A DNA stretch of 63,830 nt, the filler included, from Reclinomonas americana ATCC 50394 (taxonomy: Eukaryota): the NCBI GenBank assembly GCA_048213135.1. It is 21 parts of 21 records of this genome, joined end to end, with 100 filler letters (N's around TTAATTAATTAA, not from the genome) between each part and the next. Parts side by side here need not be neighbours in the genome. Positions count along the whole stretch, not along the records: positions 31,311 to 41,858 come from AFZH01022281.1; positions 41,959 to 43,763 come from AFZH01022282.1; 19 more parts are not named here. One strand, given 5' to 3'. A program made the position numbers and the translations under genes. Shown here piece after piece: positions 14,090 through 42,409 of the stretch (position 1 is its first letter; the number at the start of each line of letters is the position of its first letter). The notes beneath the pieces were generated by a model that was not told where the DNA came from, searched no databases, and saw only the letters and a list, made by a program, of their open reading frames with translations.

Positions 14090-15059
14090 TCATGAGGTAT
14101 CGATCCTGACGGCGAGGATGGTGCGCGGGGCCGAGCCCGGCGCGAAGCGCTCGACGAGGATCATGCGACCGCCGCAGCAGGGGCAAGGTGGCCTCCGCTC
14201 ATCGACCGGATCGGATCGTTCGGCCGAGATCTCTGCTTCACGATCTGCCGTCGTCGTGGCCGGCGTTGCCGCTGCGATGATCTGCCTGATGCGGGCGATG
14301 GTCTCGGCGCGGCGGCTGGAGGCGAGCAGGCCGTAGTGGCGGATGCGGTGGAAGCCGTCGGGCAGGACGTGGAGCAGGAAGCGGCGGATGAACTCGGGGG
14401 CCGTCAGCGTCATGGTCTTGCGCCAGATCTTCCCGGCCGAGTGGGCGCGATAGTCCTTCCAGCGGAACGTGACCCCCTGCCGATCCATGGCAATGATGCG
14501 GCTGTTGGCGATGGCGACGCGGTGGGTGTAGCGGGCGAGATAGGCAAGCACCGCCTCAGGGCCTCCGAAGGGGCGCTTGGCGTAAACGACCCAGTCGGCC
14601 CGGCGCAGTGGTGCCAGCATGGCGGCGAAGGCGTCGGGTCTGGCCAGATCGGTGAGATCACCATGGAAGGCGAGCCTCCCGGCCGCATGCAGGGCGGATA
14701 GGCCTTCGAGGAAGAGTCTGCGGAACAGGCGCGAGAGCACGCGCACGGGCAGGAAGAAGCCGGGCCGGCATGAGATCCAGCGAGCGCCGTCCGGCGAGAG
14801 GCCGCCGCCGGGCGCGATGATGTGGAGATGGGGATGATGGGTCATCGCCGATCCCCATGTGTGCAGGACGCTGGTGAAGCCGATGCGGACGCCGAGATGC
14901 CGGGGATCGATGGCGATGGTGGCGAGCGTCTCGGCCGCGGCCCTGAACAACAGGCCGTAGACCTCGGCCTTGTTCTGGTAGGCGACCGCTGCGATCGGCG
15001 CCGGCAGGGTGAAGACGAGATGATAGTAGGGCACGGGCAGGAGATCGGCCTGGTGCTGC
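14090..15059 (-). CDS. IS91-family (HUH/Y2) transposase, 5' partial
   Basis: YYHLVFTLP, LHTWG..HHPHLH (HUH), YLARYTHR, FIRRFLLHVLP.GFHRIRHYG, C-terminal CPCCG. Confidence 0.95.
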
Positions 15060-17714: not shown

Positions 17715-19386
17715 ATTCGATGCGTCGTACGCCTCCTCGCGCATCAGTCCGCTCCTCGAAGCTGCCCCGAGCTGCCGACCGGTGGTGCTCGACCGCTCCG
17801 TCCGCGGAGCGCAACTGCACGAGGTGGCCCGCGGGATCGCTGATCAAGCTGGTTGTCTGGCCGAGCGGGTCGACCACGCTGGTGGTGTTTCCGAGCGCGT
17901 CGTATTCGTACCGCCACTCGGCACCGCCCGGCTCGGCGACGAGTAGGGGAAGCCCCGCGGCGTTCGACCAGATGCGGGTGATTCCTCCGACGGCATCGGT
18001 CATGGAGTTCACCGTGCCGGTGAGCGCATCGTAGGTATAGGAGGTCGCCGCTCCGATTGGGTCGATCGTCCGGGTAAGGGAGCCTCCAGCGTCGTACTCG
18101 TAGCGCCACACGGCGCCGTCGGGGCCGGTCACCCTGACGGGTTGGTGGGCCTCGTCGTAGTCGATGGCGACACGTCCGCCGTCGGGGCGAATCACGGCCT
18201 TCAGGTTGCCGATCTCGTCGTACTCCCACCGGGTCACGTGACCGAACTCGTCCGTCTCGGCGGTCACCCGTCCGAAGCGGTCTCGCTCGGCAGCCGACGT
18301 GTGGCCAAGCGGATCGGTCTGGCCGATCACCCGCAGCTGCTCGTCGAGCTGGTAGCGCGTGACGGCACCGAGCGAGTCGGTAACCACGGTGACCCGGTTC
18401 TGGGTGTCGAAGGCCAACTGGGTACCGAGGTAGCCTTCGGTGCCATCGGCAAGCACGCAGCGGCCGGCGCCGTCATAGGTGTAGCGGTAGCTGCGTCCAT
18501 TGACGTCTACCCAGCCCGACAACCTGCCTTCGTCGTCGTAGTGAAATTTTTGGGGGGTGCCAACCGCGTCAACGAATTCCACGAGCGTGCCCGCCAGATC
18601 GTAGCGGTACTGGGCCAGCGGAACGGGCGAGTCGGCTACTCGCAGCGCCGTGACGAGGCCGTCGACGCTGTCGATCTCGACGCGATATCCGCCCGAGTGC
18701 TCGACCGACACGGGCATTCCGTCTCGGTAGTGGACGAGCGTCCAGTTCCCGGCACCATCGACGACAGCGCGGAGCCGCATGGTGGCCTCACCGCGTGCAC
18801 CGGTGAAGTAGCGCAATCGGTCCGACTGCGGGTCACCGACGATGAAGCCGTTCCGTACCCGGCGCAACGCGAGGTACGGCCCGACCTCGGGCAGGACTGA
18901 CTCGACGCCGCGCGGAAGCGGGTAGCGCAGGAGCGTACCGTCCTCCAAGGCCAAATGCAGCGCGTCTTCCTCCACCTCGATGCGCTCGTCGAGCGTTGAC
19001 GCCCAGCTGGGCCCGAAGAGGCGCCCCGCCCGATACGTCGACAGGTGGGTGCGGGAGATCACGAGCGGCAGAGCACCTGGTAGCGACACATCCTCCTGAT
19101 CGAGCATCACGGCGCCCGTTGCCACGTCGATCGGGTCGCCGCAATCGACCCGATCAATCCTCGGCGTGATGTGATCGAGTGGCTTGGGATTGCTGTCGGC
19201 GATGCGGGGTCCGTTGCCCGTCCCTCTAGACGAGACGTCCGGACGGTCGCTTCGATTCGCTCCGCGAAATGAGCCCATCGCTCCCCGGAATGAGGACTTG
19301 ACGGCCGGTCCGATCAGTTTGGCCGCGCCGAAGGTCAGCACGCCGGCGATGGCGATTCCCACATCTAGCCAGGAGCCCTCACCCAT
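17715..19386 (-). CDS. RHS/YD-repeat protein with DUF6531-like domain, partial at both ends
   Basis: GDPIDVATG, FGPSW, many YxYD..G repeats. Confidence 0.9.
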
Positions 19387-19486
19387 NNNNNNNNNNNNNN
19401 NNNNNNNNNNNNNNNNNNNNNNNNNNNNNNTTAATTAATTAANNNNNNNNNNNNNNNNNNNNNNNNNNNNNNNNNNNNNNNNNNNN

Positions 19487-20736
19487 ACATCACGGGGGCT
19501 CTGCAGGACGGCGAGCTGGGCGACGAACCACTTCGCCATGGCGCGTGCTCGAGCGGGCGCTCCCGCCACTCCCAAAACGCCCGACTCGGCGAGAGGGATC
19601 GTCGTGGGGACGTCGTGGATAATGGCGGGTAGCCTGCGGCGGTACTCGAGCGACTCGCGAAGGTCTTCGATGACGACTGCGCTCGGCAGGCTCGCGGTGC
19701 CGATGCGGAGCAATAGGTGGTCGTCGTCGGCGGGTCGTCTCTCCCACAACCGTGAGCCGGGCGCCGTGGCAATCGTCCACAGGTCGGCCGCGCTCGGGGC
19801 GGAGGCGAGGAGCTCGGCCCGCTCGAGAATGTGCCGCTCCTCGATGTCCGACTCGATGCGCTCAACGGTCGCGCGATGCTCGGCCATGTTCGCGGCGTGA
19901 CTGCGGCTCCCACGCCGTTTGGCGGAGAGCGCGTTCACCATCACCATGATCGGGGAGAGCAACGCGAGGGCGAGGAAGGCGAAGGTTCCGAAAATCAGGG
20001 CGGACACGACCCCTGCGACGAGCGGAAGCAGGGCGGCGAGCCAGGGTAGGGAGCTCCTGGCCTGGAAGGCCGGAGCTGCCGGGATTCGGAACATCGCGTC
20101 CGGTCCCGTGAATCGCAGCCGAGGAGGGCGGTTGAAATCGAGTGCTGTGCCGTCCTCGTCGGGTTCGAGAACGGCGTCGACCTCGGTCACACCCCGATGT
20201 TGAACCAGCGAGCCGCCGATGCGCAGGTCAGTGCCGCCCGGCCAGCGAGTGAATTCCTGGCCCAGGGCGTTCCGTTCAGTTCCGCTTGCACGAGCACGCT
20301 CGCCGGTCGCACGTGCACCCCCATCTGCAGGTCGACCAGCACAAGGAGAGCTTGCGGAGGAAGGGGGGAGAGCAGGGCGTCATTCGAGGCGGCACTTCCG
20401 ACGGAGTGTTGGCCGGGGCCGAGCCGAACGACGCTCCCGGCGCCCGGGCCGCTTGAGATTCCTAAGTCGACGAGCCCGGCGACGACATCGCTGCCAGGAG
20501 CCCCTCCTCTGCCCACTGTGAGCACCGCTCCTTGACGCACCCCGGCGGAGCGTAACGTCGCGTCGAGTTGGGCGACCGAGCCGTCTAGCGACACGGTCGC
20601 CTGCCCCGCAGCGACCGATGACGTGTCCACTCCCATACGGTGCAGCACATCCGCCAGGGGGTGTCTCGGGCTCCGCGTCGACGAGGAAGTCGCGGGAGCG
20701 GGCGCTCGCGTCGCGGAGCGTGAGGGCAATTCGCAT
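19487..20736 (-). CDS. N-terminal part of an FHA-containing FtsK/EccC-like type VII secretion ATPase; two frameshifts, 3' partial
   Basis: Three frames join: MRIALTL..LVDAEPETP / LADVL..SGPGAG..LGPG..VGS / FNRPPR..TM..LWERRPADDDHL.LRIG..WFVAQLAVLQSPRD. The ATPase domains are lost in the gap. Confidence 0.75.
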
Positions 20737-20813
20737 GGTCCTGATTTCGTGGGGGTCTGGTGTGACGGCCGCAGGGAACTCCGCCGTCGACAGGGCGGAG
20801 TTCCCTCCCGCTG

Positions 20814-21110
20814 CTACTTCTTGAGCGCGCTCGCGAGGTCCGAGTCGGTCTGCTGCAGCGCATCCGCCGCTTTCTTCAGGTAGTCGCTCATTCCTTCGAG
20901 TCCGGCGATCGTTTTCGTCGCGCCGTCGTTGAACTCCTGGTACGAGCTGCCGAAGGCGATGGAGGACTGGTCGGTGACGTACCCTCCCGACACAAGGCTG
21001 TCGACGAGGCTCTTCAGCCGGCCGAGCTGTGTGTTGATCTCCTGCTGCCCGCTCCGGAGCCTGGTCGCGGCATCCCGCATGTCCTCGAAGGTGACGTTCA
21101 AATTGGCCAT
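20814..21110 (-). CDS. WXG100/ESAT-6-like type VII secretion substrate
   Basis: 98 aa helical hairpin MANLNVTFEDMRDAA..LVSGGYVTDQSS..LQQTD; lies directly upstream of the FtsK-like gene. Confidence 0.85.
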   Translation of the reverse strand: MANLNVTFEDMRDAATRLRSGQQEINTQLGRLKSLVDSLVSGGYVTDQSSIAFGSSYQEFNDGATKTIAGLEGMSDYLKKAADALQQTDSDLASALKK

Positions 21111-22873: not shown

Positions 22874-24088
22874 GTGACTTCATCAATGAGACCAGGGCCG
22901 ATCCGGCCGTTCCGTAGCGAGACCCTTCCCGAGCAGCTCGAGGACCTAAGGGATCGACTCGCGAAGACCAGGTTCGCACCGGCCCTATCCGGGACGACGT
23001 GGACCCACGGCACTCCACCTGAGTACCTCATCGAGCTCGTGAATTACTGGCGAACCGAATTCGACTGGAAGGTTGCCGAGCAGCGACTTAACGCTCTCCC
23101 GCAGTTCACGGCCGAGGTCGACGACAGCATCCTGCACTTCGTACACGCGAAGGGAGTCGGCCCACGACCGCTTCCATTGTTGTTCTCACACGGCTGGCCT
23201 GGAGCATTCTGGGAGGTCCATAAGATCATCGGGCCTCTGACCGACCCAGCAGCGCACGGCGGCGACCCGGCCGACGCGTTCGATCTGATCGCGCCGAGCC
23301 TCCCCGGTTATGGCTTCTCCCCACATCCCGGCACTCCCGGGCTGAGCCCGAAGGCGATCGCCAGTAAGTTCGACAAGCTTATGACCGAGGTGCTCGGCTA
23401 CTCCCGTTACGGCGCTCAAGGAGGTGACTGGGGTGCAATGATCACCAGTAGCCTCGGCCGCGACCACAGCTCCAACCTGGTCGGCATTCACCTGAACATG
23501 ATCGGCGCCTCGCCGGTTATGAACGAGAGTTCCGCTCCGCTCACCCATGCCGAGCGTGCTTTCGCTTCTACAGCCGAGCAATGGCTTGCGGACGAGAGCG
23601 CCTACAGCCTCATCCAAGGCANNNNNNNNNNNNNNNNNNNNNNNNNNNNNNNNNNNNNNNNNNNNTTAATTAATTAANNNNNNNNNNNNNNNNNNNNNNN
23701 NNNNNNNNNNNNNNNNNNNNNGTGGATCGTCGAAAAGTTCCGGGCCTGGAGCGACTGCGGCGGCGATGTGGAGTCGGTCTTCAGCAAGGACGAGCTCCTT
23801 ACCTTCATCACGCTCTATTGGCTAACCAATACCGCAGCCACGTCCGCGCGGCTGTACTTCGAAGCGCAGCACGGCGAAGGCATGCTAGCGCCCGGCTACG
23901 TGGATGTTCCGACCGGGTACGCGGAGTTCGCGAAGGACATAGTCGTTCCGCCGCGGGAATGGGTGGAGCGCTGCTACAACCTGACCCGGTTCACCGAGTT
24001 CCCTCAGGGAGGGCACTTCGCGGCGCTAGAACGGCCGGATGACCTGGTGAGCGAGATCCGCGAGTTCTTCCGTCCGCTGCGCGGTTAA
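22874..24088 (+). CDS. Epoxide hydrolase (EHN domain plus alpha/beta fold), split by the gap at 23622-23721
   Basis: HGWPG, SLPGYGFS, GGDWG nucleophile; after the gap WIVEKF..ITLYW..GGHFAALE. Confidence 0.9.
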
Positions 24089-28578: not shown

Positions 28579-29211
28579 TTAGCGGTCGCCTGATCCCTGA
28601 TTCTCCTTGGCACCTCGAATCAAGTCCGCGATCCGACCTGGATCGAGGCCAATGATGAGCCATGTACGCGGCGTGATGGGTTGTCCGTGAGTGACGAGCC
28701 CGGCTTCGAGAGTAGTCATGAACGACTGCGCCTTCTCAGGACACCAAGCCTCTGGGATTGCCGAGATGGCGGCAAGCATTTCGGGCACGACTCCGTACCG
28801 CTCATCGAACTGCCAAGAGGGGTAGCGGCGTCTCTTCCCGACTATGAAGAAGTACAGTGTGCCTTGCTGTGCGCGCCGTCTCACTTGTCGCGTGCCGATC
28901 CCGAGGTAGTCCGCGGTCTCATCGTCGCTGAGCGAATCAATGACGGCGTTGATGCGTGCGCGGTATTCGGGGCGGAGCCTTCGTTCAGTATGCGCCGAGT
29001 CGACGGGCGCGAGTACATCGTTGCCGCGTTCCGCGATACAAGCCGTGAGGGTGACAAGGAGTGCGTCGATGAGCTTCCAGTCGCGTCCTTGCTCAGCCGC
29101 CGTGTCGATGAGAAGTCGCAGCGACGCGGAGACGGTCTCCGTGTCAACGGGGGTCCATTCGGGCTGCTCTCGAACGGTTTCCTCCTCCTGAGGATCACTG
29201 TTCAATGTCAT
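28579..29211 (-). CDS. HTH protein with YPxWQF motif (Rv2175c-like / RES-partner antitoxin-like); start uncertain
   Basis: ETADYLGIGTRQVRRR..RYPSWQF..FMTT..TPRTWL. Confidence 0.6.
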   Translation of the reverse strand: MTLNSDPQEEETVREQPEWTPVDTETVSASLRLLIDTAAEQGRDWKLIDALLVTLTACIAERGNDVLAPVDSAHTERRLRPEYRARINAVIDSLSDDETADYLGIGTRQVRRRAQQGTLYFFIVGKRRRYPSWQFDERYGVVPEMLAAISAIPEAWCPEKAQSFMTTLEAGLVTHGQPITPRTWLIIGLDPGRIADLIRGAKENQGSGDR

Positions 29212-30018
29212 AGGAGAATCTCTCGAGGATTCCCGCGACAGTGTGCGGATTCCTTCCATGATCAAGCCAACCGGCGGGGGATTGGTGGCGACCGTCGATG
29301 GCCAGCTCTGCACGTGGAGCCCTCATGAAGAAATGCTCGGCCGGTAGCGACCATCCGACTGGAATCGACGGCGCGACGATGTCGATGCCGGCGACGACTG
29401 GCTTGTTCGGTTGATCGGAGAACTGCCATGCCGGGTAGAGCACTTCATCATCGAAATCGACAGTGCGGAGATATCCTGCGACCGTTAGGCGGTGCAGGTA
29501 GCTCGTGGTGATGTCCAGCCGCGCCGCGGCCGCGGCCGGACTGAGTGACGCGGTCACCGCATCCTCACGGGGTCCTCTGCTCGCACGCGGGGGCTTCTTG
29601 CTGACGAGGGCTCGAACTCGATGCTCCGCGATGGCGAGCTGCTGCAATCGTCGTCCCGGCCGGAGGCTATTTGCGACTCCTTCGTCGAACTCGAGGTAAC
29701 CACCTCGCTCCCACACTTTGATGACGAAGTAGCGAAACATGTAGCGCGTGTGAACACGCTGGGAAGGACTGTAGCCCTCTCGAAGTGGTGACGGAAGTCC
29801 GCCAGTTTCGGGGAGAAGGTGCTGGAACAGTTCACGAAACGTTGGGCCTTCCGCATGCTGGCGCCGATAATGCAGGATGAACAGCGCTGCTGCCAGGCCC
29901 CACTCCCTCGCGGATTCTCCCCGAGTGAGCTCTTCGACCGTGACGGTCCACGCCGCGGGAGGACGCACTCGTCCGATCCACCAGCGTCGTAGCGTGTACC
30001 CCGACCGGGACTTCACCA
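29195..30018 (-). CDS. LexA-like winged HTH fused to a YPxWQF HTH domain; start uncertain
   Basis: FILHYRRQHAEGPTFRELF..WERGGYL; then AAARLDIT..LYPAWQF..FMRAP..SPAGWL. Confidence 0.55.
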
Positions 30019-30201
30019 TGGCAATCGCCATCCTCACTCTCTTGCTTGAGCGGCCCGAACGGTTGCGCGGGTCCAGCGGCGCAAGGCGTGCACCATCCCT
30101 GCATGCGCGAATGCACACGAGAACTCGAACAGCCGCGGAACAACACTATGGCTTACGAGTAAGCCCATACAGGGGCTGCCATTTGCGAAACGCTGGAACG
30201 C

Positions 30202-30486
30202 GTGACGGCTAGCGCGAGTGGGGCAGACCCCGAGTGGCAGGACTTCGTCCTGAGGCTCTCGGTTCAGCTCCGTCGCATGCGGCTCGAGGTCGGCCTCAGT
30301 CAGGAAGAGGTCGCGCATCGTGCGGGGCTGAGTCGCTTCATCTACCGCCAGTACGAGAGTGGTGAGTCTCGTCGAGGGACCGCCGCGAATCCCGCACTGC
30401 GTTCAGTGCTGGCCATCGCTCAGGTGCTTCAGGTACCGATCGAAGATCTGCTGCCGAAGCCCGTGCCCGACCTTCGAAGCCGGTAG
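30202..30486 (+). CDS. XRE family HTH regulator
   Basis: LRRMR..GLSQEEVAHRAGLSR..YESG..NP. Confidence 0.85.
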   Translation: MTASASGADPEWQDFVLRLSVQLRRMRLEVGLSQEEVAHRAGLSRFIYRQYESGESRRGTAANPALRSVLAIAQVLQVPIEDLLPKPVPDLRSR

Positions 30487-31310: not shown

Positions 31311-32751
31311 ATACCGGGTCGACCGCTCGTCGAGAATGAGAACGGACAGGGGGTCGACAGCGTCCGTTGAGGCGCTTTCGTTGCGGTCGACGTCGTCGGT
31401 GCGCTGGCGCGTCGAAGACCGGCGCCGAGATAGCGGACTGCGCTTCGCGCTCGGCGCGAGCTGCGTTATCGAGTTCACGCCACAAGTTCATTACACGCAC
31501 CTGTGCGATGTGCGTTGCTGGCAGCCTGTCGATGACGTCGCCGATTGCTGCACGTTCCGCACGGGCTCGCTCGGCGATCCACTGATCGAGCTTTTCTTCC
31601 TCTTGCCGCAGTTCACGCTCCGCCGTCGCAAGCTCACCCATGCGACGCATGGCTGCCTCGAGATCGTCGGATGTTGGGACGTCGACGGGCTTTGGTGCGA
31701 GAGTGGCTCGTCTTGCAGGGCGATCGGGCCGCTTTTGCCCGCGGCGGTTCAGATTGATCGAGTGCGTCACGTTGGAGAAGTCATAGTGACTGCCGAGACT
31801 CGCGCCACGGACAGCCGTCGGCATGCTTTGCAGCTGATAGCTGAGGCGACTATCCGGCTCGCCTGCATCTGTTCTACTGCGCGTTGTGACCTCCACGCCA
31901 AGCTCCGCCATGACACCGATCCACGAATTCAGATCGACCGCGCGCGCGTCGTCCATCCCGGTTTCGACCGCATCGCGGACGATGTCGTGATTGGAACGCT
32001 TTCCACGTGCAGTCATGCGTCGATCTCGCTGATTTCGGGTTTCGCGCTTCGAGTCGGAGACAGACGGGAGCTGCTGCGGCCGCAGGCCGTACGAAGCCCC
32101 GTGCTCCAGGAGGAATCGATCGGCTCGTTCGCGCATCTTGTCGATGTTCGTGAGGTCACCAGCAAGCTTCTTGCCTGCTCGGTGCGCGCGGCCGCCGACA
32201 GTCATGTCGGCATAAAGAGTCGCATTCCGCGTTGTGTGCACGTGGAACATCCCACCGAGCCCTTCGGCTTGGCCCACGAAGGTTGCCTGCTCGCCCGGAT
32301 ACAACGCTCGATGGCGGGCGACGACGAATTGAAAAGCGTGAGTCACTTGCGTTGGGTCCTTCGGGTTGACCTCGTCGAGAGCGAAGGACGTTATCCAATG
32401 ATGAGCTTCCGCTTGCCGCACGCGCGCGCCGGGATGGCGAATGTGCGTTGCTGCCTCGCCCGGTTCCGGTTCCGCCCAATAGCCTCGTCCGTTCGGTCGC
32501 CGCCGTCTCACGTGCGTTGCAAACTCCCCGGGCTCGGGAAGCTTGTAGATCGATCGCGACGTTCGGACCGCGCCTTGCTTGTTGTGTCGACGGCGTGTGG
32601 CGGCGAACTCCTGTTCTGCTGTCTCCGGTCGGCAGTGCTGGCCGGAGATATGCAGCACTCTTTCCTTCACCGTTTGACCGGCTTTCGGAGTCACCGTGTA
32701 TCGAAGTAGGCGTGCAGCGACAGCCGTTGTGCCGACGTACTCGATGGGCAT
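31311..32751 (-). CDS. Relaxase/mobilization nuclease (MOBP-like)
   Basis: N-terminal LLRY, AHHWITSF (motif II), GGMFHVH (motif III), RGASLGSHY; coupled to the upstream mobC-like gene. Confidence 0.75.
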
Positions 32752-33527
32752 CAGAAGACTGCAGCGACTCTGTTGGCGAGCTTTGCATCGTTTTGCGCCT
32801 GGCGTGACATCGCGGCCGACATCTCGGTCAGCCGACGCTCGATAGCGCGCAGCGCGTCAGTGTCCACGGCGACACCGGCGGAAGCGAGTTTCACCAGCAG
32901 GCTCCAGTCGTTTCCGATCTTCTGTAGCTCCAGTGTCTGATCGGCGTATCGACGCGCGACGCTATCCAACGCTTCCCGGACTTCGTTCGCCAAGCCGGGA
33001 TCGACCTCAATCGTGACCGGTCGGCGAGACGCAAGACGCTTTCCTAGAGTTCGCTCGACCGCTTCCAGTGATGGGGAGTCGGACAGAGCTGCAGCCACGA
33101 TCTCCACGGCCTGACGCACTGCGTCTGAACGACTGCCACCGAGATGACGGCGCACTTCAGACAAAGCGGCAAGCTCCTCCTGGCGCATGCGCACCGCGAC
33201 AACCTCTTGCCCTACCGCCTTCGAAGCGTGAGCGCTGATGCCGGTCGCGTCGCGAGTGTTTGAGTCACTCGCTGGCAAGGCCGCAGACTTCTTCCCGCGT
33301 GTCCCGCGAGGTTCGGTGCCTGGACGCGCTCTTACTTCCCGTTCATTGCTCAACGTCAGCTCCAGTCTGCGAGGAGGGCGCAACTCGAACGCTGATTCAG
33401 CAAGCTTCGCCCGAGGTACCAGCCTACATGCAAGCAATCCGACCGTATACAGACCTCGCGGCCGGACTCGATAGGGCCGATTTTTGATGTGCGCTATCGA
33501 GATCGTGTGTCGCCTGACGTGGAGCAC
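32751..33527 (-). CDS. MobC-like relaxosome accessory protein (true start probably well downstream of 33527)
   Basis: RHH-like VAVRMRQEEL..SRSDAVRQA and ELQKIGND; stop overlaps the relaxase ATG. Confidence 0.6.
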   Translation of the reverse strand: MLHVRRHTISIAHIKNRPYRVRPRGLYTVGLLACRLVPRAKLAESAFELRPPRRLELTLSNEREVRARPGTEPRGTRGKKSAALPASDSNTRDATGISAHASKAVGQEVVAVRMRQEELAALSEVRRHLGGSRSDAVRQAVEIVAAALSDSPSLEAVERTLGKRLASRRPVTIEVDPGLANEVREALDSVARRYADQTLELQKIGNDWSLLVKLASAGVAVDTDALRAIERRLTEMSAAMSRQAQNDAKLANRVAAVF

Positions 33528-34091
33528 CGGTGGTGGCCTTTGAGTGAACTCATTCGGGATGTTGGAACGAGATGCTCTCGCGTAAAGCGCCGCCCGTGGC
33601 GATGCACGTCGCGACCGTGCATGTCGAGACGATGTGGGCCTGTCTCAACCATCCGCCCACGCGCAGCGCCCCGACCATTCTTGTCGGAATCGCGGTGAGC
33701 GGACACTGGGTGACACGCTGCAGGGCTACTACGGATGCCTCCCGCCACCTCTGTCGTGACACTTCCTTGGTCGGCGAGCCTGCTCTGGCCGATACGGATC
33801 TCGACGGGGAAGAGAGGAGGCGGTACTGCCGTCCCGCGCGATGCGGATACCGCTTCAGCAAAGTCGAATGCGGCGATACAGTCGGCTCGTCTGGAGACGC
33901 GTTCGGCTGCGCGGCCACCTCTGAACCTCTATCTCTGAAGAGAACGTGGGAGCAGTGCGCGTGGGCTGAACGCCACGCGCACTCGAAGAGATTGCTGGTG
34001 AGCGACCCGCGACCACAGGCGTCGTCGGCGTTGTTGCGCGGTACACGTGCATGGCGTCCGCACGACAGCCCTAGGCCATGCACGTGACGGC

Positions 34092-36566
34092 CTAGGCCGT
34101 ACCGCCGGTGGTCTTCTTCAGACGGTCCGCGAGGTGTCCGGGACGGAGCTTGTGACCTTCGAGGAGTCGGTCGATCTCGTTCGCGTCATGCCATCCGGTG
34201 GAGGCAAGGCCTTCACTAAACCCACGCACGTCGTGGATAAGCTGACCGAGCACCTGAGCGTCGATAATGCGCATCCCGGCGGGGGCGGTGGCGTCCTTAT
34301 AAAGCCTCCGGGAATGGTGGACCATCACCGGAGTGGCGACGTCCGTGGGGGAGTAGTGCTGTCCAAACCAAAGCATTGACTGCGCCAACTGTCCGGCGTC
34401 CCGTTTCGCGATGAACTCGCTGACAGCACCGCTCTTATCCTCAACTACCCAAAAGACGCCCGTGTCCAACATCCATAGATTGTCGGGGCCAGCGCCCAGT
34501 TCGCGTTCTGGTCGTTGTGAGTTCCAACCGAGGAAGTGCCCGAGCTCGAACATCGCCTCCTCGAACTCTTCCGTCGTGTCGGGGTCGAACGTGAGCGCGT
34601 CCAGAATGCTCTCTACACCCACCCGCATCGTCGCCGGCGTCCCATACTTCGGGGTCAACCGGTTGGCGATGGTGTCGGCCTGAGACCCGGCATAGGTCAA
34701 CGGCGTGTAGGTGACACCCGCCAACGGCTTGAGTACGTAGAAGTTTTTCCTGCGGGCTTCGGCGAGCATCGTCTGAGCGCGGGCGGGATCCACCTGGTCG
34801 ATGTACGCCGCGGCCTGCTCGAGCAATGCCCCCGCACGTCGGTCATCGGAGGTGGCGGAGGCGGCGTCATGGAGCAGCTGGCATGCTGCGGTGAGGTCAC
34901 CTCGGGTCGCTGCGTCAAACGCTTCCCTCTCTGCGACGGTGGACAGGTCCACGCGGGCGGGCTCGGGGACGAGCTTCCGCAGCGCGGACTTCGCGTATTT
35001 CACCCATCCTGGCTCTCGGGTAAGAGCGTCGTTCACCGTCTCGAGGATCTTCTCTAGCGGGGTGTTGTCGAGCCGTTTCGCCACCCGACGGGACGCCTGC
35101 AACTGAGCCCGGGTAGCGGGGCCAAAGCGGGACAACGTCTGCGGGTCAATCGTCAACCGCGCCAAGCGCCTGCCGAGAAGAAACACCACGCAGTGATCCT
35201 CGTTACTGCGTACACCTCGCCCCATCCCCTGTTCCAGCCGTTGCACCTGCCGGTCATCGATGGCAGCGACAGACGAGCTCATCAGCGCGTCCAATCGTTC
35301 GTCGCCGCTGAACGCTTGCGGGAGTCCATCCAATACCAGGATCCGACACGCGTCCTGAGGAAGGTCGATACCGTCGTACTTATTCGCGACCACAACCAGC
35401 CCGACGATGCTTCCCTTCATCTTCGGGATGAACTTCTCTAGGTCCGCGGCGGTCAGTTTGTGAGCTGTGTTCGGCCACGCGTCCATCGCCCGATTGCTGG
35501 GCACGATGACCAACGTGTTGTGAGTGCGGCTGAGTTCAACAACCGCGTCGCGCACGCTCTGCGCCTGAATGGACTCGTTGATTTCTTGCGGTGCGAGAAT
35601 CAGACGCTCCCCGATATCGCCGGCGGAGATCGGGTGGATGGGGGCGCCGACGAAACCGGGGTCGGCACCGAACTCGGATACGAGGACGCTGTCATCCGCG
35701 AGCGTCGCCGTGAGGAACACGCGATGCTCCGCTTCCGCGAAGCTGACCACTCGGCGTACCGGCGGGCACGGGGGCGTGATTGTCACAGCGGACCGCGTGA
35801 ACACTACCCTGCACAGCGGCAGGACATCACGGATGGCATCGTAGGAGAAGTCCAGTGGGTTCGCCGGTGTGTATGCGCGCAACGCTGCACGAAGGTCGTC
35901 GATCTTGCTGCGCACGGACCAGAACGGCACACGTGCGAATGCACTGCCACGATCATCCTTGATATCCAGAAGGATGTCCGCGGACTGCGTCGCCAACTCG
36001 ACGTCGAACAAGGCGAGCAGCACACCGTATGCATCGTTACTGCGTGGGATGGTCACAGAGAACTGCGAACGGACGGTGGCCAAGGCGGCGTGCGCGTCAT
36101 CGATGACGACGGCACCGATGGGGATGCGGTGCCCCGGGTCTCGCGACTCTGAGAAGATCGAGTGACCGTTGAACAGCTTCGCGGCATTGACGACGCCGAT
36201 AGCCTCGCCGGCTAGGTACGCCGCAGACTGTGGATCGGTTGTCACCTCGATCCCGAGGCGGGCTGCTTCGGCGGCGACCTGTGAGGCAAGGTACTTGTCC
36301 GGGGCGACGTACAGCGCGGGGAGCACACCATCGTTTAGGTAGCTCCGCAATATGACGAGACCGTCGATGGTCTTCCCACCGCCCGTATTGACCTTGATGA
36401 CGATGTCCTGATCACCGCGCTGCGCGTCCCAAGCGGTGAGGACTTGCGCCTGCACATCCCGCAAGTACCCGTACCCGGGAACTTTCGACGGCAACTGCTC
36501 GTACAATTCCCGTGGCTCCGTCTCCCTGCCGTCCTCAGCCTCACGAATCAGCTCGTCGTAGTCCAT
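34092..36566 (-). CDS. SF2 (DinG/Rad3-like) helicase with C-terminal PD-(D/E)xK nuclease; Hna-like defence protein
   Basis: YLRDVQ, NTGGGKT, DDAH, TAT, YDGIDL, QGMGRGVR, GPDNLW..VEDK. Confidence 0.8.
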   Translation of the reverse strand: MDYDELIREAEDGRETEPRELYEQLPSKVPGYGYLRDVQAQVLTAWDAQRGDQDIVIKVNTGGGKTIDGLVILRSYLNDGVLPALYVAPDKYLASQVAAEAARLGIEVTTDPQSAAYLAGEAIGVVNAAKLFNGHSIFSESRDPGHRIPIGAVVIDDAHAALATVRSQFSVTIPRSNDAYGVLLALFDVELATQSADILLDIKDDRGSAFARVPFWSVRSKIDDLRAALRAYTPANPLDFSYDAIRDVLPLCRVVFTRSAVTITPPCPPVRRVVSFAEAEHRVFLTATLADDSVLVSEFGADPGFVGAPIHPISAGDIGERLILAPQEINESIQAQSVRDAVVELSRTHNTLVIVPSNRAMDAWPNTAHKLTAADLEKFIPKMKGSIVGLVVVANKYDGIDLPQDACRILVLDGLPQAFSGDERLDALMSSSVAAIDDRQVQRLEQGMGRGVRSNEDHCVVFLLGRRLARLTIDPQTLSRFGPATRAQLQASRRVAKRLDNTPLEKILETVNDALTREPGWVKYAKSALRKLVPEPARVDLSTVAEREAFDAATRGDLTAACQLLHDAASATSDDRRAGALLEQAAAYIDQVDPARAQTMLAEARRKNFYVLKPLAGVTYTPLTYAGSQADTIANRLTPKYGTPATMRVGVESILDALTFDPDTTEEFEEAMFELGHFLGWNSQRPERELGAGPDNLWMLDTGVFWVVEDKSGAVSEFIAKRDAGQLAQSMLWFGQHYSPTDVATPVMVHHSRRLYKDATAPAGMRIIDAQVLGQLIHDVRGFSEGLASTGWHDANEIDRLLEGHKLRPGHLADRLKKTTGGTA

Positions 36567-36778
36567 GGCCCCTCCGCCCGTCCCGCAGCTTGTGCTGCGT
36601 CGCTATCTCATGCCGTGGGCCCGCGCAGGTGCGAAGGCCCAGCGGTTCACCACGGTCGCGCGCGGCGAGTGGTGGCGGCCGCCGCATCACCGTTCTCCCT
36701 GAATAGAGTGCAGACCGTGCCCAGCTCGGTCGTCACGGAGCGCGTATGAGAGCGAGTACAACCAAGCTCGCTCCTTCG

Positions 36779-37030
36779 TCAGCGTGTGTCCTTGCGGGGC
36801 GACTCGTTATTGCGGCCGGAGTCAGAGTCACGGAATTTTCCATCACTGCCCTGAATGCGGATATCTCCGCGGCCCCCGCCACTCTTATTGACGATCTCTC
36901 GCGCCCGATCAATGGCTTCCTTCTGCGTGTCGAAATGACCTGAGGAGCGTTGCGCGTCTTCCTTCTTCACGTCCCAGCCTCCCCGATCGTCGTTGGGTAC
37001 CACGTACCGATCTTCATCGTTCTTCGACAT
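36779..37030 (-). CDS. DUF2188 family protein (in-frame upstream ATG at 37105 would add a 25-aa peptide)
   Basis: YVVPN..GWDVK..FDTQKEAIDRAR..IRIQGSDGKFRD. Confidence 0.85.
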   Translation of the reverse strand: MSKNDEDRYVVPNDDRGGWDVKKEDAQRSSGHFDTQKEAIDRAREIVNKSGGGRGDIRIQGSDGKFRDSDSGRNNESPRKDTR

Positions 37031-37094
37031 GCGCTTTCCCTTCTTGTAGACCTTCTTCTTCCACTCGTTCGGTTCATCGGCCGGTGCAGGCTTC

Positions 37095-37613
37095 TCACTC
37101 GGCATGATCAGCACTGCTCTCGGTGCTTGAAGGGGTGGGGGGCAGGTGCTCCACCACCTGTTCACCCATAGAGCCGAGGAGGGCGATGACGATACTTAGC
37201 GCAAGGAAAATGAAGCCCACTCGGGTGACCCATCCGCGAATGCCGAGCCATTTCTCGTCCGCCTCGAGTATCTCGAGCTTTGTATCAAGCAGCTTGTACT
37301 TCGCGACTGCCGGCTCCATGTCGAGCACATGAGTTCGGATGGGTCGCAGATCCAGCGCGTCCCCTCTACGGGGGAAGACGACAATCACCCCTGCGACCGC
37401 AGCGAGGAAGCTCAGAACCAGGTTCAAGTTGATCGACCATGATGGGCCGTCGGCCTGAAGCGCGCCTATGATTCCGGCTGCGCCGATCAGGATGGTCGCG
37501 CGTTGTTCCATGGCGTTTGCACGCTGGCCCTGGGCCGCCACTTCGCGGTCGAGTTCGTCCGCAACAAGCTGAAGTTGCTCATCGCGACCGTCGAGGTCCG
37601 GTTGCTCGTCCAT
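37095..37613 (-). CDS. Small membrane protein with about 3 hydrophobic segments
   Basis: ATILIGAAGIIG, LVLSFLAAVAGVIVVFP, VGFIFLALSIVIALL; TAATG coupling to the upstream ORF. Confidence 0.7.
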   Translation of the reverse strand: MDEQPDLDGRDEQLQLVADELDREVAAQGQRANAMEQRATILIGAAGIIGALQADGPSWSINLNLVLSFLAAVAGVIVVFPRRGDALDLRPIRTHVLDMEPAVAKYKLLDTKLEILEADEKWLGIRGWVTRVGFIFLALSIVIALLGSMGEQVVEHLPPTPSSTESSADHAE

Positions 37614-37759
37614 TACTGCTCTGCGGGAGGACGGGGTCGCTCTGGCTTGGTCGGGGGCTTTTTGTTCCCAAATTTGCCGTTGTCTTGGGGAGGTTGCTTG
37701 CCCTTGTATACCGGCTTCTTCCACGCCTCATTTGGGCTGTCTGGGGTGGGCTTCGCCAT
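37613..37759 (-). CDS. 48-aa Pro/Lys-rich peptide
   Basis: GGGAG RBS, ATG, stop overlapping the next start; motif shared with the peptide at 37031-37105. Confidence 0.6.
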   Translation of the reverse strand: MAKPTPDSPNEAWKKPVYKGKQPPQDNGKFGNKKPPTKPERPRPPAEQ

Positions 37760-38145
37760 CGGAACTCCCTTGTTTGAAGTGAGTGTATCGCTCGCCGCTC
37801 CGTTGTCGAAGAATCGGGAGCGGGACACTGCTGTTTGGGCGTCCGTTGGCGAACCCGATCAATTCGCCGCTGCTGCGAACGTGACGATTGAGCTAGAGCC
37901 CTCCGACTCGGCTGCCAGACCTTTTCAGGGAAGGCTTGAGGACCGCCGTCCTCGCCGACACCGACCCGTAAGTTCGCGGTAGGGAACCGCATCGAGCGGC
38001 CTTGGCGCTCTTGACAGCGCCTGACGGCGAGGGGACACGTGACTCAACCGAGCTCATGTCGGATGTCGCCTGCAATCGCGCGCCCGGATTTCCGATGGCG
38101 GCATCCTCCCACCGACCTTCACTCAAGCGTAGCAAGCCAGTCGGA

Positions 38146-38481
38146 TCAGAATGCCGCCGCATCAGTGGGTGTCTCCAGCACTGAGGCCTCCGGTTCGTGC
38201 ACGAGATAAAGTCCGCTGCGGGCGTACGCCGTGTAGACGAGCGCGGCGATCCAGGACCGATGGATCGTAAACTCGTCACTACCGCGGTACTTGAGGACCA
38301 AGCTGGAATCGGCGTGTATCCACATCGTCGTGCGGCCCCCTCCGATGCTCGGGTCCTCCCTATAACTGAAGTCGAATTGCTCGCCTCGTCGTCACTTCGC
38401 CGTGATGGCAAGCTGCAGATGTTGCAGCGCTCTGTCCTCAACTTCAGTAGAAAAGTTGCTCTCGTAAACCAGCTTGCCCAC
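38146..38481 (-). pseudogene. Small conserved Microbacteriaceae-type protein interrupted by an in-frame TGA at 38392-38394
   Basis: Manual translation MGKLVYE..EVEDRALQHLQLAITAK*RRGEQF..GGGRTTMWIH..WIAAL..SGLYLVHEP; family recognised from memory. Confidence 0.65.
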
Positions 38482-38890
38482 CTCGGGGCTTCGCTTCACC
38501 GCATCGGCTTCGCTGGGTCTCCACCGGCTTCCGTTTAAGGGCCTAGGGCAACGTACCACCGAGGCTTGCGCAGGCCCGCCTGCACCGTAAGGGCCAAGCG
38601 TGGGCGGCTCGAAGTCAACGCCACTGATGAGGGCGGTCCCGACAGTTCTGGGGAACCCTCCGGGGACCACCCCCCCCGGTTTTGCCGGGGACATCACCTG
38701 CCCGAAGACCGCGCTTCCTGCGAGCTAGGCTCAACCTAGCCCCGAGGACGCCTAGCCTGCCAATCCCCCTTGGGATGTTCGAGCCAGTGGCTGACTGAGT
38801 GTTCGGAGCGGGGCACCCGGCCTTTTGCCTGCTGAACGAGTAGGCGAGGGTCCTGGGCATCGATAAGAGCTCAGAACCCCTTCGTCTCGC

Positions 38891-39199
38891 CTACGATGAG
38901 GGCCGTGTGAATACCCCATTCAGGCGTTCTCGCAGAAGAGCAATCCTCTCGGATTCATCAAAGTCTCCGTCTATCGCCGAGACACTGAGCCTCCGGTACA
39001 GATGCTCGATTACGTCGTCGCGATTCTGACTGCGCCGAGCCTCGAGTCGCTCCTTCAGGCTCTGCGCTCGTCGAGCCGCCTCAAGGTAGCGCTCCTTTTC
39101 CGACTTGACCTGTCTGCGCTTCGCCGGTTCTGGTCCCGCCACCGCGGGTGTTGGGGTCAGGCCGTCTGATGGGGTCTGCGCCTGCTCCCACGGATTCAT
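38891..39199 (-). CDS. Hypothetical coiled-coil protein
   Basis: GAGGAG RBS; co-oriented with the xis-like gene. Confidence 0.55.
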   Translation of the reverse strand: MNPWEQAQTPSDGLTPTPAVAGPEPAKRRQVKSEKERYLEAARRAQSLKERLEARRSQNRDDVIEHLYRRLSVSAIDGDFDESERIALLRERLNGVFTRPSS

Positions 39200-39337
39200 G
39201 CGCTCATCTCCTCAGTGGTGCTGACGTGCTGTTGAGCAAGGAGCCAGGCATCGACGTTTCGCGGAATACAGCGTGGCGCTCGGGCTTCGAGAGGCGAGCT
39301 GTCGCGGGCGAGACGACTCTTTGTTATCACCACGATC

Positions 39338-39637
39338 TCACTCACCACCCAGGGCGGTCGCGAAGACAGCGAGAATCAGAGAGCGCTGCTCGGGACGGAA
39401 CGGCGGCGCCTTGGCGACCATTCGCTCTACCCAGTCCTCCAAACTGGAGTTTGACACGCTGACAGGCTGCGGAGCAGCAAAAGTGTCTAGGTCATCAGGC
39501 GTAACGAAGAGGCGGCCTTTGATCTTGACTGCGGCTAGGCCGCCTGCCTTGATATGCCGGCGAAGTGTGGACAGGCCGTAGCCGCTGCGCTCCGCGGCTT
39601 CAGCGATTTCGATGAGGTTTGATGTCGCGATTGACAT
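39338..39637 (-). CDS. Excisionase-like HTH protein / candidate recombination directionality factor
   Basis: IAEAAERSGYGLSTLRRHIKAGGLAAVKI.GRLFV; near the recombinase. Confidence 0.75.
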   Translation of the reverse strand: MSIATSNLIEIAEAAERSGYGLSTLRRHIKAGGLAAVKIKGRLFVTPDDLDTFAAPQPVSVSNSSLEDWVERMVAKAPPFRPEQRSLILAVFATALGGE

Positions 39638-39707
39638 TCAATGCTCCTATGGGAAGAGGAGCACAACGTTCGATTCTTTGTCTGGAGCTCGTATGTTCTG
39701 GATCAGT

Positions 39708-39814
39708 CGTCAGCCAAACGGTCTGGTCCGCACCCTCGGGAGGGTCTTATGAGTGTTGTGAAGTTGTGGGCTCATTTTTCTGTACCAGGCGTCAGCCAAA
39801 CGTTCTGGTCCGCA
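39708..39814. repeat. 25-bp direct repeat CGTCAGCCAAACG(G/T)TCTGGTCCGCA x2 (39708-39732, 39790-39814)
   Basis: 24/25 identical; upstream of the xis-like gene. Confidence 0.85.
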
Positions 39815-40198
39815 TCTTGTTGTGCACTCGGGGATGACCAAGCTTGATCACTATATAGATCACCACTGACATCGCTGGGGCACGTGCGATCACGAGTGAT
39901 GACCGCAGGTCAGTTCTCCCGTGGGAGACTCCGTCGTGGCTGGAGATGTCGCCTCGAAGGACTGCCGGCTAGGGTAGTGGCTGGCGAAGAACATAACGGC
40001 GCCACAGGTGTCTAGGCCACTCCGACGCGGGAGCTAGGTCCGACGATCGGATCCCGTTCCCGCACCACTCAGCGGCCGTGGTGCTACATTCCGGAGCTTT
40101 TGTCAAGATCGCGACACCCTTCCGCGAGCCGCCGTTCCGGCGCCGAGATAATGCAGAGCCCCTCATCGCGCTACCGGGAATGAGCCCACCGAGCGGTG

Positions 40199-41731
40199 TC
40201 ACCGCCAGAGCGGTTCGACCCTCTCGTGATTGACGCCCTTGCGACCCTTCCACCCCTTGCCGACGCGGTTCACCACGGGCCACACGACAGCTCTAATCAC
40301 CCGTCTCCTATCTGCTAGGTCGAGACCGTCCCAAGCCATGCTGATTGCTCCACCAGATAGCAGCGTTGCAACGAACGGGTCCACGTCTGACAGGCGTCCG
40401 AGCCGCTGCCTGGCAGCAGTGATAAGGGGCAGCACTCGGGCTTCCTGGTCCACGATTAGTTCGAACCGCCGGTTCTCAGCGGCTTGCTGTCGGACTGCAT
40501 CCAGATACGACTCGTACTCGCCGATCTCGGCAGTGAGCGCTTCGCGCGTAGCTCGAGCTTCGTCGGTCTGGTCGCCGAGAGAAGAGATGAACTCCTGACT
40601 GTCCAGGCGTTTGAATAAAAGTGCAATCACGATCTCATCCAGCATCGTCTCCTGCATGCTGACGTGGAACCCACTCTTCCCGTCTGGTCCGCGGCGACCG
40701 GGCACACCGCTACACACGTAGGTCTTGTATGTGTCACGCGGTAGAGCCTTGCCGTTCTCATCGAGCTTGCGCGATCCCCGGTTCTGCTTTCCTACGCGAA
40801 GGGGAGCGCCGCAGACACCACACAGGGCGATGCCGGACAGGAGGTGCCTGGCCGGCCAGTCGTTCGTTCGTCTGCGAGCCGCCGGCGACATGATTCCCTG
40901 TAGCCGTTGCCAGATGTCGAGGTCAATCAGCGGTGGCCAGATTGCATCGCCAACAATTTTCCCACGGTACTCGCGCTTGCCCGCGTACGCGGGCGTCGTC
41001 AGCATCTGCTTCACGGCTGGGGGAGTCCAGCCCATGTTCTCGCGGTGCGCAACCCGTACGGGACGCCGTGGAGCAATGCCTCGCAGATTGAAGTCGCGCG
41101 CAATCGCATAGAACGTGTCGCCCTCTAGGACTCGACGCGCAGCTTCTTTGACGACGGGAGCCTGCTCCGGGTGAGGCTCAACTCGGATCAACGCTCGAGT
41201 CTGATCGTCGTAGACCCGCCGGTACCCGTAGATGTTCTTACCGTGCGGCTTACCCCTCTCGGCGGCTGCGCGGACGTCTCGGCGGATACGCTCAGACGTC
41301 TTATCTGACTCATACTCAGCGTCGACGGCGTCTTCAAGCAGGCTCCGCCGATCTCGTGCATTGCTCGGGTCGTACAAGCGGCCGTGGGTCGTGACCCAGA
41401 TGCGCACTTCGCGTGCTTTGCATAGGTCAACCAGGTCTACCCACTCACCCACTCGCCGCGAACCACGGCTTGACTCCCAGATCGCGAGGACGTCGGCGGC
41501 GAACTCATCAGCCTCGAGGTCGGCGATCAGTCGCTTGAAGTCCTCGCGCGCTTTGGTGGCATACCTACTGGCGCTACGATCTGTGTCACGGTACGGGCGA
41601 GCGGGGTGCAGTCGCCACCCCTGCCGCTGGATTGCTTGCACGTTCTCATCGTGCTGCTGGTCGGGGCTTTTTCCCGTCCCCTGCCTGTCGCGCGACACAC
41701 GCAGATACTCGCGCACGGTCAACGATGTCAT
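40199..41731 (-). CDS. Large serine recombinase (integrase)
   Basis: YLRVS catalytic Ser, WESSRGSR, YGY recombinase domain, LLSGIALCGVCG zinc ribbon; GGAGG RBS. Confidence 0.95.
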   Translation of the reverse strand: MTSLTVREYLRVSRDRQGTGKSPDQQHDENVQAIQRQGWRLHPARPYRDTDRSASRYATKAREDFKRLIADLEADEFAADVLAIWESSRGSRRVGEWVDLVDLCKAREVRIWVTTHGRLYDPSNARDRRSLLEDAVDAEYESDKTSERIRRDVRAAAERGKPHGKNIYGYRRVYDDQTRALIRVEPHPEQAPVVKEAARRVLEGDTFYAIARDFNLRGIAPRRPVRVAHRENMGWTPPAVKQMLTTPAYAGKREYRGKIVGDAIWPPLIDLDIWQRLQGIMSPAARRRTNDWPARHLLSGIALCGVCGAPLRVGKQNRGSRKLDENGKALPRDTYKTYVCSGVPGRRGPDGKSGFHVSMQETMLDEIVIALLFKRLDSQEFISSLGDQTDEARATREALTAEIGEYESYLDAVRQQAAENRRFELIVDQEARVLPLITAARQRLGRLSDVDPFVATLLSGGAISMAWDGLDLADRRRVIRAVVWPVVNRVGKGWKGRKGVNHERVEPLWR

Positions 41732-41754
41732 TGCCACCTCCAAACTAAACTATA

Positions 41755-42409
41755 TCTGGCGCGAACTGCGCGATCGTCGTCGGTGCCGTGTTCTGGCTGA
41801 CCGCCCTGTGCGGCGGCGGACGGATGCTGCGCGTCGTGCTGGCCGCGACGGCTTTGGCNNNNNNNNNNNNNNNNNNNNNNNNNNNNNNNNNNNNNNNNNN
41901 NNTTAATTAATTAANNNNNNNNNNNNNNNNNNNNNNNNNNNNNNNNNNNNNNNNNNNNGCGTCGGCGGGCCTGCGGGGCGTCCGTGGGGTCAGCGGTCTG
42001 GCGAGTGCTGTGGCCGCTGCGAGACTCTGCGGCCTTCCCGCCCGGCAACGACGCGAGCGTGGTGATCGACTTCGCCGGCGGAGAGGTGCCCCGCTCCCTG
42101 TTCCTCGGAGACCTCTCGGCCGAGCCGCAACGCATGCTGATGCGCTCGGTGCGGCTCGGCGCATACACCGTGGTGAAGGTCGCGCATCACGGCAGCGCGG
42201 ATCAGGATGCCGGACTGTACGACGCGGCGCAGGCGACGGCGGCGATCTTCAGCGCCGGAGCCGACAACGACTACGGCCACCCGCGGGAGGAGACGCTCGA
42301 CCTTCTCGGCGCAACCGGCGCACATCTCCTTCGTACCGATACCCAGGGGCGCATCCTGCTCGGCATCCGCGATGGCCGGCTGCAGGTCTGGACGGAACGG
42401 GACCGGTGA
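41755..42409 (+). CDS. comEC: ComEC/Rec2 competence protein, 3' portion (interrupted by the element; gap at 41859-41958)
   Basis: SGANCAIVVGAVFW.. begins at 41755; after the gap NDASVV, LGDL, KVAHHGS, NDYGHP, RTDTQG; holA-rpsT lie further downstream. Confidence 0.85.

Follow-up and report, generated by a model that had tools for sequence, protein, structure and literature searches.

The comEC junction

The 63,830-nt stretch of DNA analyzed here (the window) derives from the assembly of the eukaryote Reclinomonas americana ATCC 50394 (GCA_048213135.1) and comprises 21 contigs of 1.0-10.5 kb each, joined by N/TTAATTAATTAA spacers. Our subject is contig 9 (31311-41858), on which the gene for a large serine recombinase (integrase) lies beside a fragment of comEC, the gene for a DNA-uptake channel. 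The nearest genome compared, designated G001, served as the reference for comEC identity and collinearity. Contigs 10-16 follow the same order as G001 positions 210.4-237.2 kb, at identities of 97.6-99.5%; contigs 1-8 have no match within G001 170-250 kb and carry metabolic genes, an IS91-type transposase, and an RHS/WXG100 pair. The presence of Microbacterium-like contigs in a eukaryote assembly is probably due to low-coverage DNA from an associated or contaminating bacterium. The features that define the junction are as follows.

31311-41757: visible right-hand part of the island, 10.4 kb, from the contig start to the crossover; a G001 match is absent upstream of 41758
40199-41731, minus strand: large serine recombinase (integrase) of 510 aa, assigned from Pfam, phrog_95, an AlphaFold model, and relatives at the same site
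41734-41741: outer motif of the attP arm, CCACCTCC; the minus strand reads GGAGGTGG
41742-41757: inner attP arm, ending ...ACTATATCT; consensus ACTATATCY
41758-41759: GG, the putative crossover dinucleotide; first two bases of the Gly codon in SGxN, where identity to the attB of G001 starts
41758-41858, plus strand: comEC fragment, residues ~277-310 (G001), truncated where the contig stops; the B' arm of attR consists of its first ~20 nt
41959-42409, plus strand: comEC 3' end, residues ~659-806, the metallo-beta-lactamase part, with the stop at 42407-42409

Upstream of the integrase start, AT-rich sequence (...CCAAACTAAACTATATCT) runs up to 41757 and then gives way to GGCGCGAACTGCGCGATC. Identity to G001 comEC begins at the GG at 41758 and amounts to 97.0% over the 101 nt of 41758-41858. 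This segment corresponds to ComEC from G277 onward, within H271-LTAVSGANC (G001 numbering), placing the break at HLTAVS|GANC. Nothing in contig 9 upstream of 41758 matched G001, in which ComEC is an uninterrupted 807-aa open reading frame (ORF) that serves as the empty site. An earlier note on this DNA had described an insertion in the core motif of comEC; the sequence is as described there, and "serine-integrase element" is an apt term. The switch to comEC upstream of the integrase ATG, which it also reported, is present. Its TCT is not the Ser codon of the host, however: the triplet lies in ACTATATCY, a sequence found again in other elements, and so belongs to the element arm; host-derived sequence begins 26 nt rather than 23 nt from the ATG. 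As the note had also stated, the next contig (41959-43763) carries the metallo-beta-lactamase end of ComEC. This contig begins inside comEC and is collinear with G001 (blastn, 98.6% over 1,805 nt); the C-terminal 140 aa of ComEC are 98.6% identical to G001 by tblastn, with the stop at 42409. Beyond these two 3' pieces, searching the window with G001 comEC returned two chance-level matches (E 0.4-0.5) and one 40-nt 85% match at 23257-23294.

Taken with the recurrence and site anatomy described below, positions 41734-41780 very probably represent the right-hand attachment site (attR) of an island put into comEC of a Microbacterium-like bacterium by its own large serine recombinase.

The integrase

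The 510-aa protein has three Pfam domains, all above cutoff: Resolvase (PF00239, residues 13-165, 9.5e-20), Recombinase (PF07508, residues 192-286, 1.4e-14), and Zn_ribbon_recom (PF13408, residues 301-376, 5.2e-06). Its match in PHROGs is the integrase family phrog_95 (3.1e-77). The ATG lies at 41731, and ORF calling places a TTG start at 41743. The stretch R7-E-Y-L-R-V-S13 is invariant in 23 of 23 aligned members of the integrase clade, and we take S13, by analogy, to be the nucleophile. In the AlphaFold2 model (mean predicted local distance difference test score, pLDDT, 78.1), helices 390-420 and 424-446 follow strands 310-360; the predicted hairpin at 390-446, after the zinc ribbon, corresponds to the coiled coil of serine integrases. 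Among solved chains, the sole match was the SPbeta integrase (E 1.9e-05).

Recurrence of the insertion site

We surveyed relatives of the integrase at two scales. Within a sample of 401 Microbacteriaceae genomes, 16 had an integrase match at E<=1e-30, of which only three were close relatives (70, 54, and 50% identity). In all three, the Pfam Competence domain (PF03772) is found in two pieces that meet at profile positions ~27-30; distant serine recombinases in the same sample (30-35% identity) had no comEC nearby. A profile scan of 185,579 species, each represented by one genome, retrieved 23 loci with integrases 44-72% identical to that of the window. They belong to Microbacterium, Cryobacterium, Leifsonia, Curtobacterium, Leucobacter, Lumbricidophila, Arthrobacter, Pseudarthrobacter, Brachybacterium, and Nocardioides; the carriers of the clade fall in Microbacteriaceae, Micrococcaceae, Brachybacterium, and Nocardioides. 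comEC is split at the same codon or Pfam position in 22 of the 23 genomes, and the loci are distributed as follows.

10 of 23 loci: comEC C-piece (from residue ~271-275) adjoins the integrase start or lies no more than ~200 nt away
2 of 23 loci: comEC N-piece (ending at residue 277 or 279) adjoins the integrase start
3 of 23 loci: comEC C-piece lies 2.4-3.4 kb from the integrase
7 of 23 loci: 4-kb flank free of comEC, which is split at the same position of the profile in another part of the genome
1 of 23 loci: comEC intact (genome G402)

The survey of homologues that the earlier note had proposed thus returned the same target nearly throughout. Together with the three close family relatives, it upholds the proposal that this recombinase uses a conserved attB in comEC.

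An element arm, the GG, and comEC, with the integrase start 20-60 nt away, also occur together in nine other independent assemblies, several of them complete chromosomes. Chance is excluded because the same junction recurs in independent assemblies. The same observation bears on the alternative of an assembly chimera that joins a mobile-element contig to a comEC read from low-coverage bacterial DNA. Such an artifact might be suspected in a window of 21 short contigs, for a junction on which four public sequencing runs, compared with G001 comEC, gave only stray pieces. No chimera would yield a conserved att arm at that exact codon, and we regard this explanation as scarcely credible. The misassembly that the earlier note had allowed for is accordingly set aside.

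Where both ends lie on one contig, the inserts measure ~39.3 kb (G151), ~46.7 kb (G376), ~49.9 kb (G405), ~42.2 kb (G406), ~36.1 kb (G409), ~10.2 kb (G410), and ~40.8 kb (G411). One locus departs in its state of preservation. In Arthrobacter sp. Hiyo8 (G404, L043), the integrase ORF is shortened to 245 aa, the comEC C-piece contains a TAG, and ~298 kb, counted across the record start, separate the comEC pieces; the insertion looks to be old, decayed, or rearranged.

Anatomy of the att sites

Eighteen attR junctions (two pairs being near-duplicates) and six left-hand junctions (attL) were aligned, with the GG at the center fixed by our choice of the Gly codon as alignment anchor. Readable attL and attR pairs were available from six genomes. 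The core common to all six pairs is GG only, and in G151 and G411, GG is the entire sequence shared between the two ends.

As reconstructed from these junctions, the predicted attP is a quasi-palindrome of ~50 bp with the form CACCTC-like hexamer / ~9 nt / ACTATATCY / GG / RGACAY / ~9 nt / GAGGTG-like hexamer. For the CACCTC at -23 to -18 from the crossover, each of the six positions is conserved in at least 75% of the 18 attR junctions. A CACCTC-like hexamer occupies -23 to -18 on both attP arms, with 0-2 mismatches, in six of six elements with both ends. ACTATATCY stands directly 5' of the GG in 8 of 18 attR junctions, and most of the remaining ones differ from it by 1-3 changes. In the window, GGAGGTGG lies 5 nt before the integrase ATG on the integrase coding strand and is probably the Shine-Dalgarno sequence of the integrase, using the same bases as the hexamer region of attP.

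The attB of ~40 bp consists of the codons for H-L-x-A-V-S-G-x-N-C-A-I-V of ComEC. Its CACCTC hexamer, formed by the His-Leu codons, lies at -18 to -13, which is 5 bp nearer the center than in attP. According to Rutherford et al. (PMC3783163), LI integrase and other serine integrases show the same displacement, with the zinc-ribbon-domain (ZD) motif shifted 5 bp inward in attB. The comEC sites follow the serine-integrase pattern of a 2-bp crossover, quasi-palindromic arms, and a ZD motif 5 bp inward in attB. The candidate integrase/att pair foreseen in the earlier note can therefore be written out, with attB readable from G001 and the full attP from relatives.

Some elements occupy the site in the opposite orientation. 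In Arthrobacter glacialis and Nocardioides (L031:3880-4010 and L049:3880-4010; also L136 and L138), the insertion is reversed at the same comEC codon with similar arms, and the central dinucleotide, seen from the integrase gene, is flipped. If the dinucleotide by itself determines polarity, this is what one would expect. The integrase genes of L031 and L049 lie ~25-30 nt behind the comEC 5' half and point in the same direction. The integrase of the reversed A. glacialis element nests among forward-oriented relatives in the tree. These elements show in nature that insertion polarity is reversed when the central dinucleotide is flipped, a point of use in genome engineering.

A candidate directionality factor

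Near the integrase, the island encodes a small DNA-binding-type protein.

39338-39637, minus strand: 99-aa HTH_17 (excisionase-type) protein (Pfam HTH_17, 7.8e-09; phrog_66), with a conserved C-terminal helix region

Homologues 36-65% identical to it are encoded 0.5-1.5 kb from the integrase in eight related elements, and it is the only gene shared with the integrase across related islands. A predicted complex of integrase and HTH_17 protein scored 0.66 (0.66, 0.65, and 0.66 in the individual runs) versus 0.00 for the best of three controls, in a test that 51 of 78 solved complexes and 2 of 108 mismatched pairs passed. Across the runs, contact agreement was at least 62% and the pLDDT of the partner at least 69. 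The predicted contacts join HTH_17 residues 65-96 with integrase residues 367-385, 450-482, and 502-510, on either side of the coiled-coil hairpin (390-446). Known recombination directionality factors (RDFs) are likewise predicted to dock near the base of the coiled coil (PMC11722253). The model supports binding of the HTH_17 protein to the integrase at the foot of its coiled coil, the place expected for a directionality factor, and the protein is probably the RDF of this element. Part of the pass in the complex test could reflect likeness to the solved SPbeta integrase-RDF complex; the HTH_17 partner belongs to a different family.

Points against the assignment

Several observations weigh against reading the junction as attR of an integrase-borne island in comEC. 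Within the window, ~1,045 nt of comEC are missing between contigs 9 and 10, and the assembly is very fragmented. The earlier note had called for attL; searches of the window with G001 comEC (tblastn and blastn) found neither attL nor the comEC 5' half there. A second, intact comEC elsewhere in the organism is possible. Among public sequencing runs, the best contained 0.20 of the sampled words, and none was clearly the source; four of them (X1, X19, X7, and X8), compared with G001 comEC at 90% likeness, yielded stray 20-170-nt pieces that are uninformative on attL, attB, and the junction. The free form of attP was not found in metagenome contigs, where the attP-core pattern had 74 matches, none with integrase or comEC nearby, a number at chance level for an 18-mer by rough estimate. 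A promoter and terminator scan of 39300-41858 returned no sites, including none promoter-like for the integrase. With 26 nt between the integrase and host DNA, one may speculate that the integrase promoter is completed only in the circular form. The integrase/HTH_17 complex prediction is a statement of model confidence rather than a measurement.

Finally, the integrase of G402 (L035:4001-5530), the tree sister of that in the window, lies outside comEC, which is intact in that genome. The two proteins are 57% identical overall; the G402 integrase sits on a long branch, and its divergence is greatest in the zinc-ribbon segment. From its sequence, it looks like a case of natural retargeting, a view that the zinc-ribbon divergence fits. 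Homologues of the window ORFs at 29195-30118 and 30202-30486 adjoin the G402 integrase (L035).

Gene content and type of element

Besides the integrase and the HTH_17 protein, the visible 10.4 kb of the island encode the following, along with small ORFs without assigned function.

34092-36566, minus strand: 824-aa DEAD/Helicase_C_2 helicase (Pfam; phrog_16128, 1.4e-175), a cargo or replication gene
36779-37165, minus strand: DUF2188 protein (Pfam, 1.6e-19)
31311-33527, minus strand: two ORFs with relaxase-like (MobA/VirD2) and VirD1-like matches (E 0.0064 and 0.0038, both sub-threshold)

The Relaxase match at 31311-33527 scores 17.2 bits against a cutoff of 24.6. The first of the two ORFs is 23% identical to a 790-aa protein encoded beside the TrwC relaxase of the G151 island, and the pair is a possible mobilization module. 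Frame analysis by GC content at third codon positions (GC3) failed to tell genes apart in the island.

More complete islands in relatives provide a broader view of what is carried. The G151 island (L018-L019) encodes a TrwC relaxase (3e-36), a T4SS-DNA_transf coupling protein (7e-13), a ParM-like protein, and a D5-type primase. Its cargo includes an MmeI-type enzyme with a DEAD helicase, a T5orf172 protein, AbiV, a small resolvase, and a MerR/sulfate-permease pair. The G376 island (L021-L023) encodes an HTH_17 protein, a D5-type primase, a CoiA-like nuclease, RHS and NERD proteins, a two-component system, and a SMODS nucleotidyltransferase paired with a SLATT_4 effector; Pfam and PHROGs scans found no relaxase or coupling protein in it. 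What these elements carry is thus variable, and their integrase module has passed between element types.

Alternatively, the element might be neither an island nor a mobilizable element but a temperate phage (prophage). The integrase matches phrog_95, the 824-aa helicase matches a phage family of unassigned function (phrog_16128), and the 10.2-kb Nocardioides element (L136:447-10656) encodes an HK97-type capsid protein, an SPP1-type portal, a large terminase, and an RHH/NikA-like protein. The remaining evidence runs the other way. Phage structural, packaging, and lysis families are absent from 31311-41757 by Pfam and PHROGs, the left part of the island being outside the window, and no structural family was found in the G376 island among 48 ORFs (PHROGs) or 71 ORFs (Pfam). 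In the G151 island, a relaxase, a type IV coupling protein, and a ParM-like protein take their place. The best integrase from 50,697 phage records is 35.5% identical to that of the window. An integrase-profile scan of viral contigs gave 24 loci, all with identities of 48% or less that cover only the N-terminal ~310 residues, and none of the 24 has comEC nearby or the arm motif. A prophage is thus improbable, and the elements of the relatives are mostly islands or mobilizable elements with defense cargo, not phages. The Nocardioides element at the comEC site is satellite-sized, not phage-sized.

Proposed mechanism and reversibility

By the established serine-integrase mechanism, the integrase would pair the ~50-bp attP on a circular element with the ~40-bp attB in comEC, make 2-bp staggered cuts at the GG of the Gly codon in both sites, and religate the strands after a 180-degree rotation. 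The insertion would split ComEC inside its membrane Competence domain, such that the DNA-uptake channel is no longer one protein and DNA uptake would presumably be lost. Excision by the integrase with a directionality factor, probably the neighboring HTH_17 protein, might then rebuild comEC and, with a conservative exchange and in-frame halves, would do so exactly.

Whether the island acts as a reversible switch in the style of active lysogeny is a separate question. Under this proposal, precise excision by the integrase and the HTH_17 protein would restore comEC and competence, to be followed by re-integration or loss; in the flipped variants, the integrase would be read from the comEA-comEC promoter, and competence induction would trigger excision. 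The in-frame halves and the conservative exchange agree with it, as does a conserved small protein predicted to bind the integrase. Where the integrase is intact, most of the comEC pieces are undecayed: 8 of 10 adjoining C-pieces align to ComEC as one segment reaching residue ~805, and 12 of 13 C-pieces have Pfam matches without stops. The sole genome with a shortened integrase, that of Hiyo8, is also one with a stop codon in comEC and widely separated halves. The co-directional integrases of L031 and L049, close behind the comEC 5' half, would suit the proposed wiring, as would the position of comEA immediately before comEC in G001. However, recent insertion explains the intact halves equally well, and undecayed pieces are compatible with either. 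No excised form, empty-site read, or attP was seen in the four runs at 90% likeness or in metagenome contigs, natural transformation is not documented here for these genera, and the HTH_17 protein may merely regulate an adjacent primase module. We therefore consider a reversible switch doubtful. Slightly less credence still is due to the proposal that comEC is a reversible parking site, with the integrase and HTH_17 protein rebuilding the gene and with flipped variants wired to the comEA-comEC promoter so that an attempt at competence triggers excision. If true, natural transformation would be a regulated, mobile-element-gated trait in Micrococcales, where it has hardly been studied.

The earlier note had also suggested that DNA uptake matters in Microbacterium. 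The support for this candidate role consists of the Competence domain (PF03772), present in 395 of the 401 family genomes, and the placement of comEA before comEC in G001. Of ~400 Competence matches, the 150 listed all start at profile position 1-3. In G001 (L133:17963-18559), a comEA-type gene (SLBB + HHH_3) lies directly before comEC, overlapping its start, and downstream of leuS, a comEA-comEC operon layout.

Comparison with known systems

Serine-integrase elements that split a competence gene are already known; what is new here is the actinobacterial clade and the site, not the mechanism. The closest precedent is the phi1207.3 family. In one source (PMC4260502), phi1207.3/Tn1207.3 and phi10394.4 of Streptococcus pyogenes are described as inserted at a GA in comEC, and Tn1207.1 in pneumococcal celB. 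Insertion of the phi1207.3 type in comEC is cited as abolishing natural transformation in a 2026 paper, which describes comEC disruption by mobile elements as rare and seen only in streptococci (PMC12955456). The phi1207.3 family resembles the present element in being a serine-recombinase element that is site-specific at a dinucleotide inside the comEC coding sequence. It differs in host (Firmicutes), in being a prophage with mef(A)/msr(D), and in its crossover, which is GA there and GG here.

Orf57 of phi1207.3 shares 25% identity with the window integrase over the first ~250 residues only and belongs to a different lineage. In viral contigs, relatives of Orf57 (71% and 50% identical) adjoin comEC fragments whose first residues lie within the metallo-beta-lactamase domain, from G001 residues ~567-612 on, and not at residue 277. 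Since these relatives sit at metallo-beta-lactamase motifs, other serine-integrase lineages therefore target other conserved comEC motifs. The fragments beside the Orf57 relatives (L054:8064-8657 and L115:7271-8080) start around H-x-D-x-D-H in one and D-V-G-Q-G-D in the other.

A second precedent is the Listeria phage A118/phi10403S in comK, where, according to one report (PMC7397523), a serine-integrase element splits a competence gene and excision restores it. The splitting of a competence gene is common to both systems. The Listeria case differs in that the target is the regulator comK rather than the channel comEC, the element is a true phage, and regulated excision was shown experimentally there and is inferred here.

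Among canonical large serine integrases, LI/A118, Bxb1, phiC31, and SPbeta SprA with SprB resemble the present system in domain order, an attP of ~50 bp, an attB of ~40 bp, and a polarity-setting 2-bp crossover. Further likenesses are the ZD motif 5 bp inward in attB and the RDF, here predicted, at the base of the coiled coil. Low sequence identity, a new attB, and carriers that are mostly islands set the present system apart. Named RDFs include gp47, gp3, and SprB. The candidate RDF here is unlike these, being of the HTH_17 type with a predicted C-terminal integrase-binding region. In Bacillus, the skin element in sigK and SPbeta in spsM are large serine recombinase elements that interrupt a gene and rebuild it by excision. 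Those gene-splitting elements are tied to sporulation, in a terminally differentiating cell; we know of no comparable developmental context for the comEC islands described here.

A literature search, with subscription papers and the supplements of integrase/att catalogues outside its scope, found no report of comEC as an integrase target in actinobacteria. For Cellulosimicrobium, the comEC coding region is listed, without comment, inside a predicted island (PMC4858710).

Implications

A separate integrase clade thus disrupts comEC in at least four actinobacterial families, at a different and highly conserved spot. The islands at this site carry defense and transfer genes, and the pattern agrees with the view that mobile elements switch off transformation as a protection against being cured. 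It further suggests that comEC would be a worthwhile target in bacteria about whose competence little is known. For practical use, the clade supplies a clearly defined set of natural integrase/attP/attB combinations and a candidate directionality factor for genome-engineering toolkits in high-GC hosts.

Elsewhere in the window, 14090-15058 and 17716-21110 hold an IS91-family Y2 transposase fragment at a contig end, and an RHS-repeat protein with DUF6531 together with a WXG100 protein, on separate small contigs.

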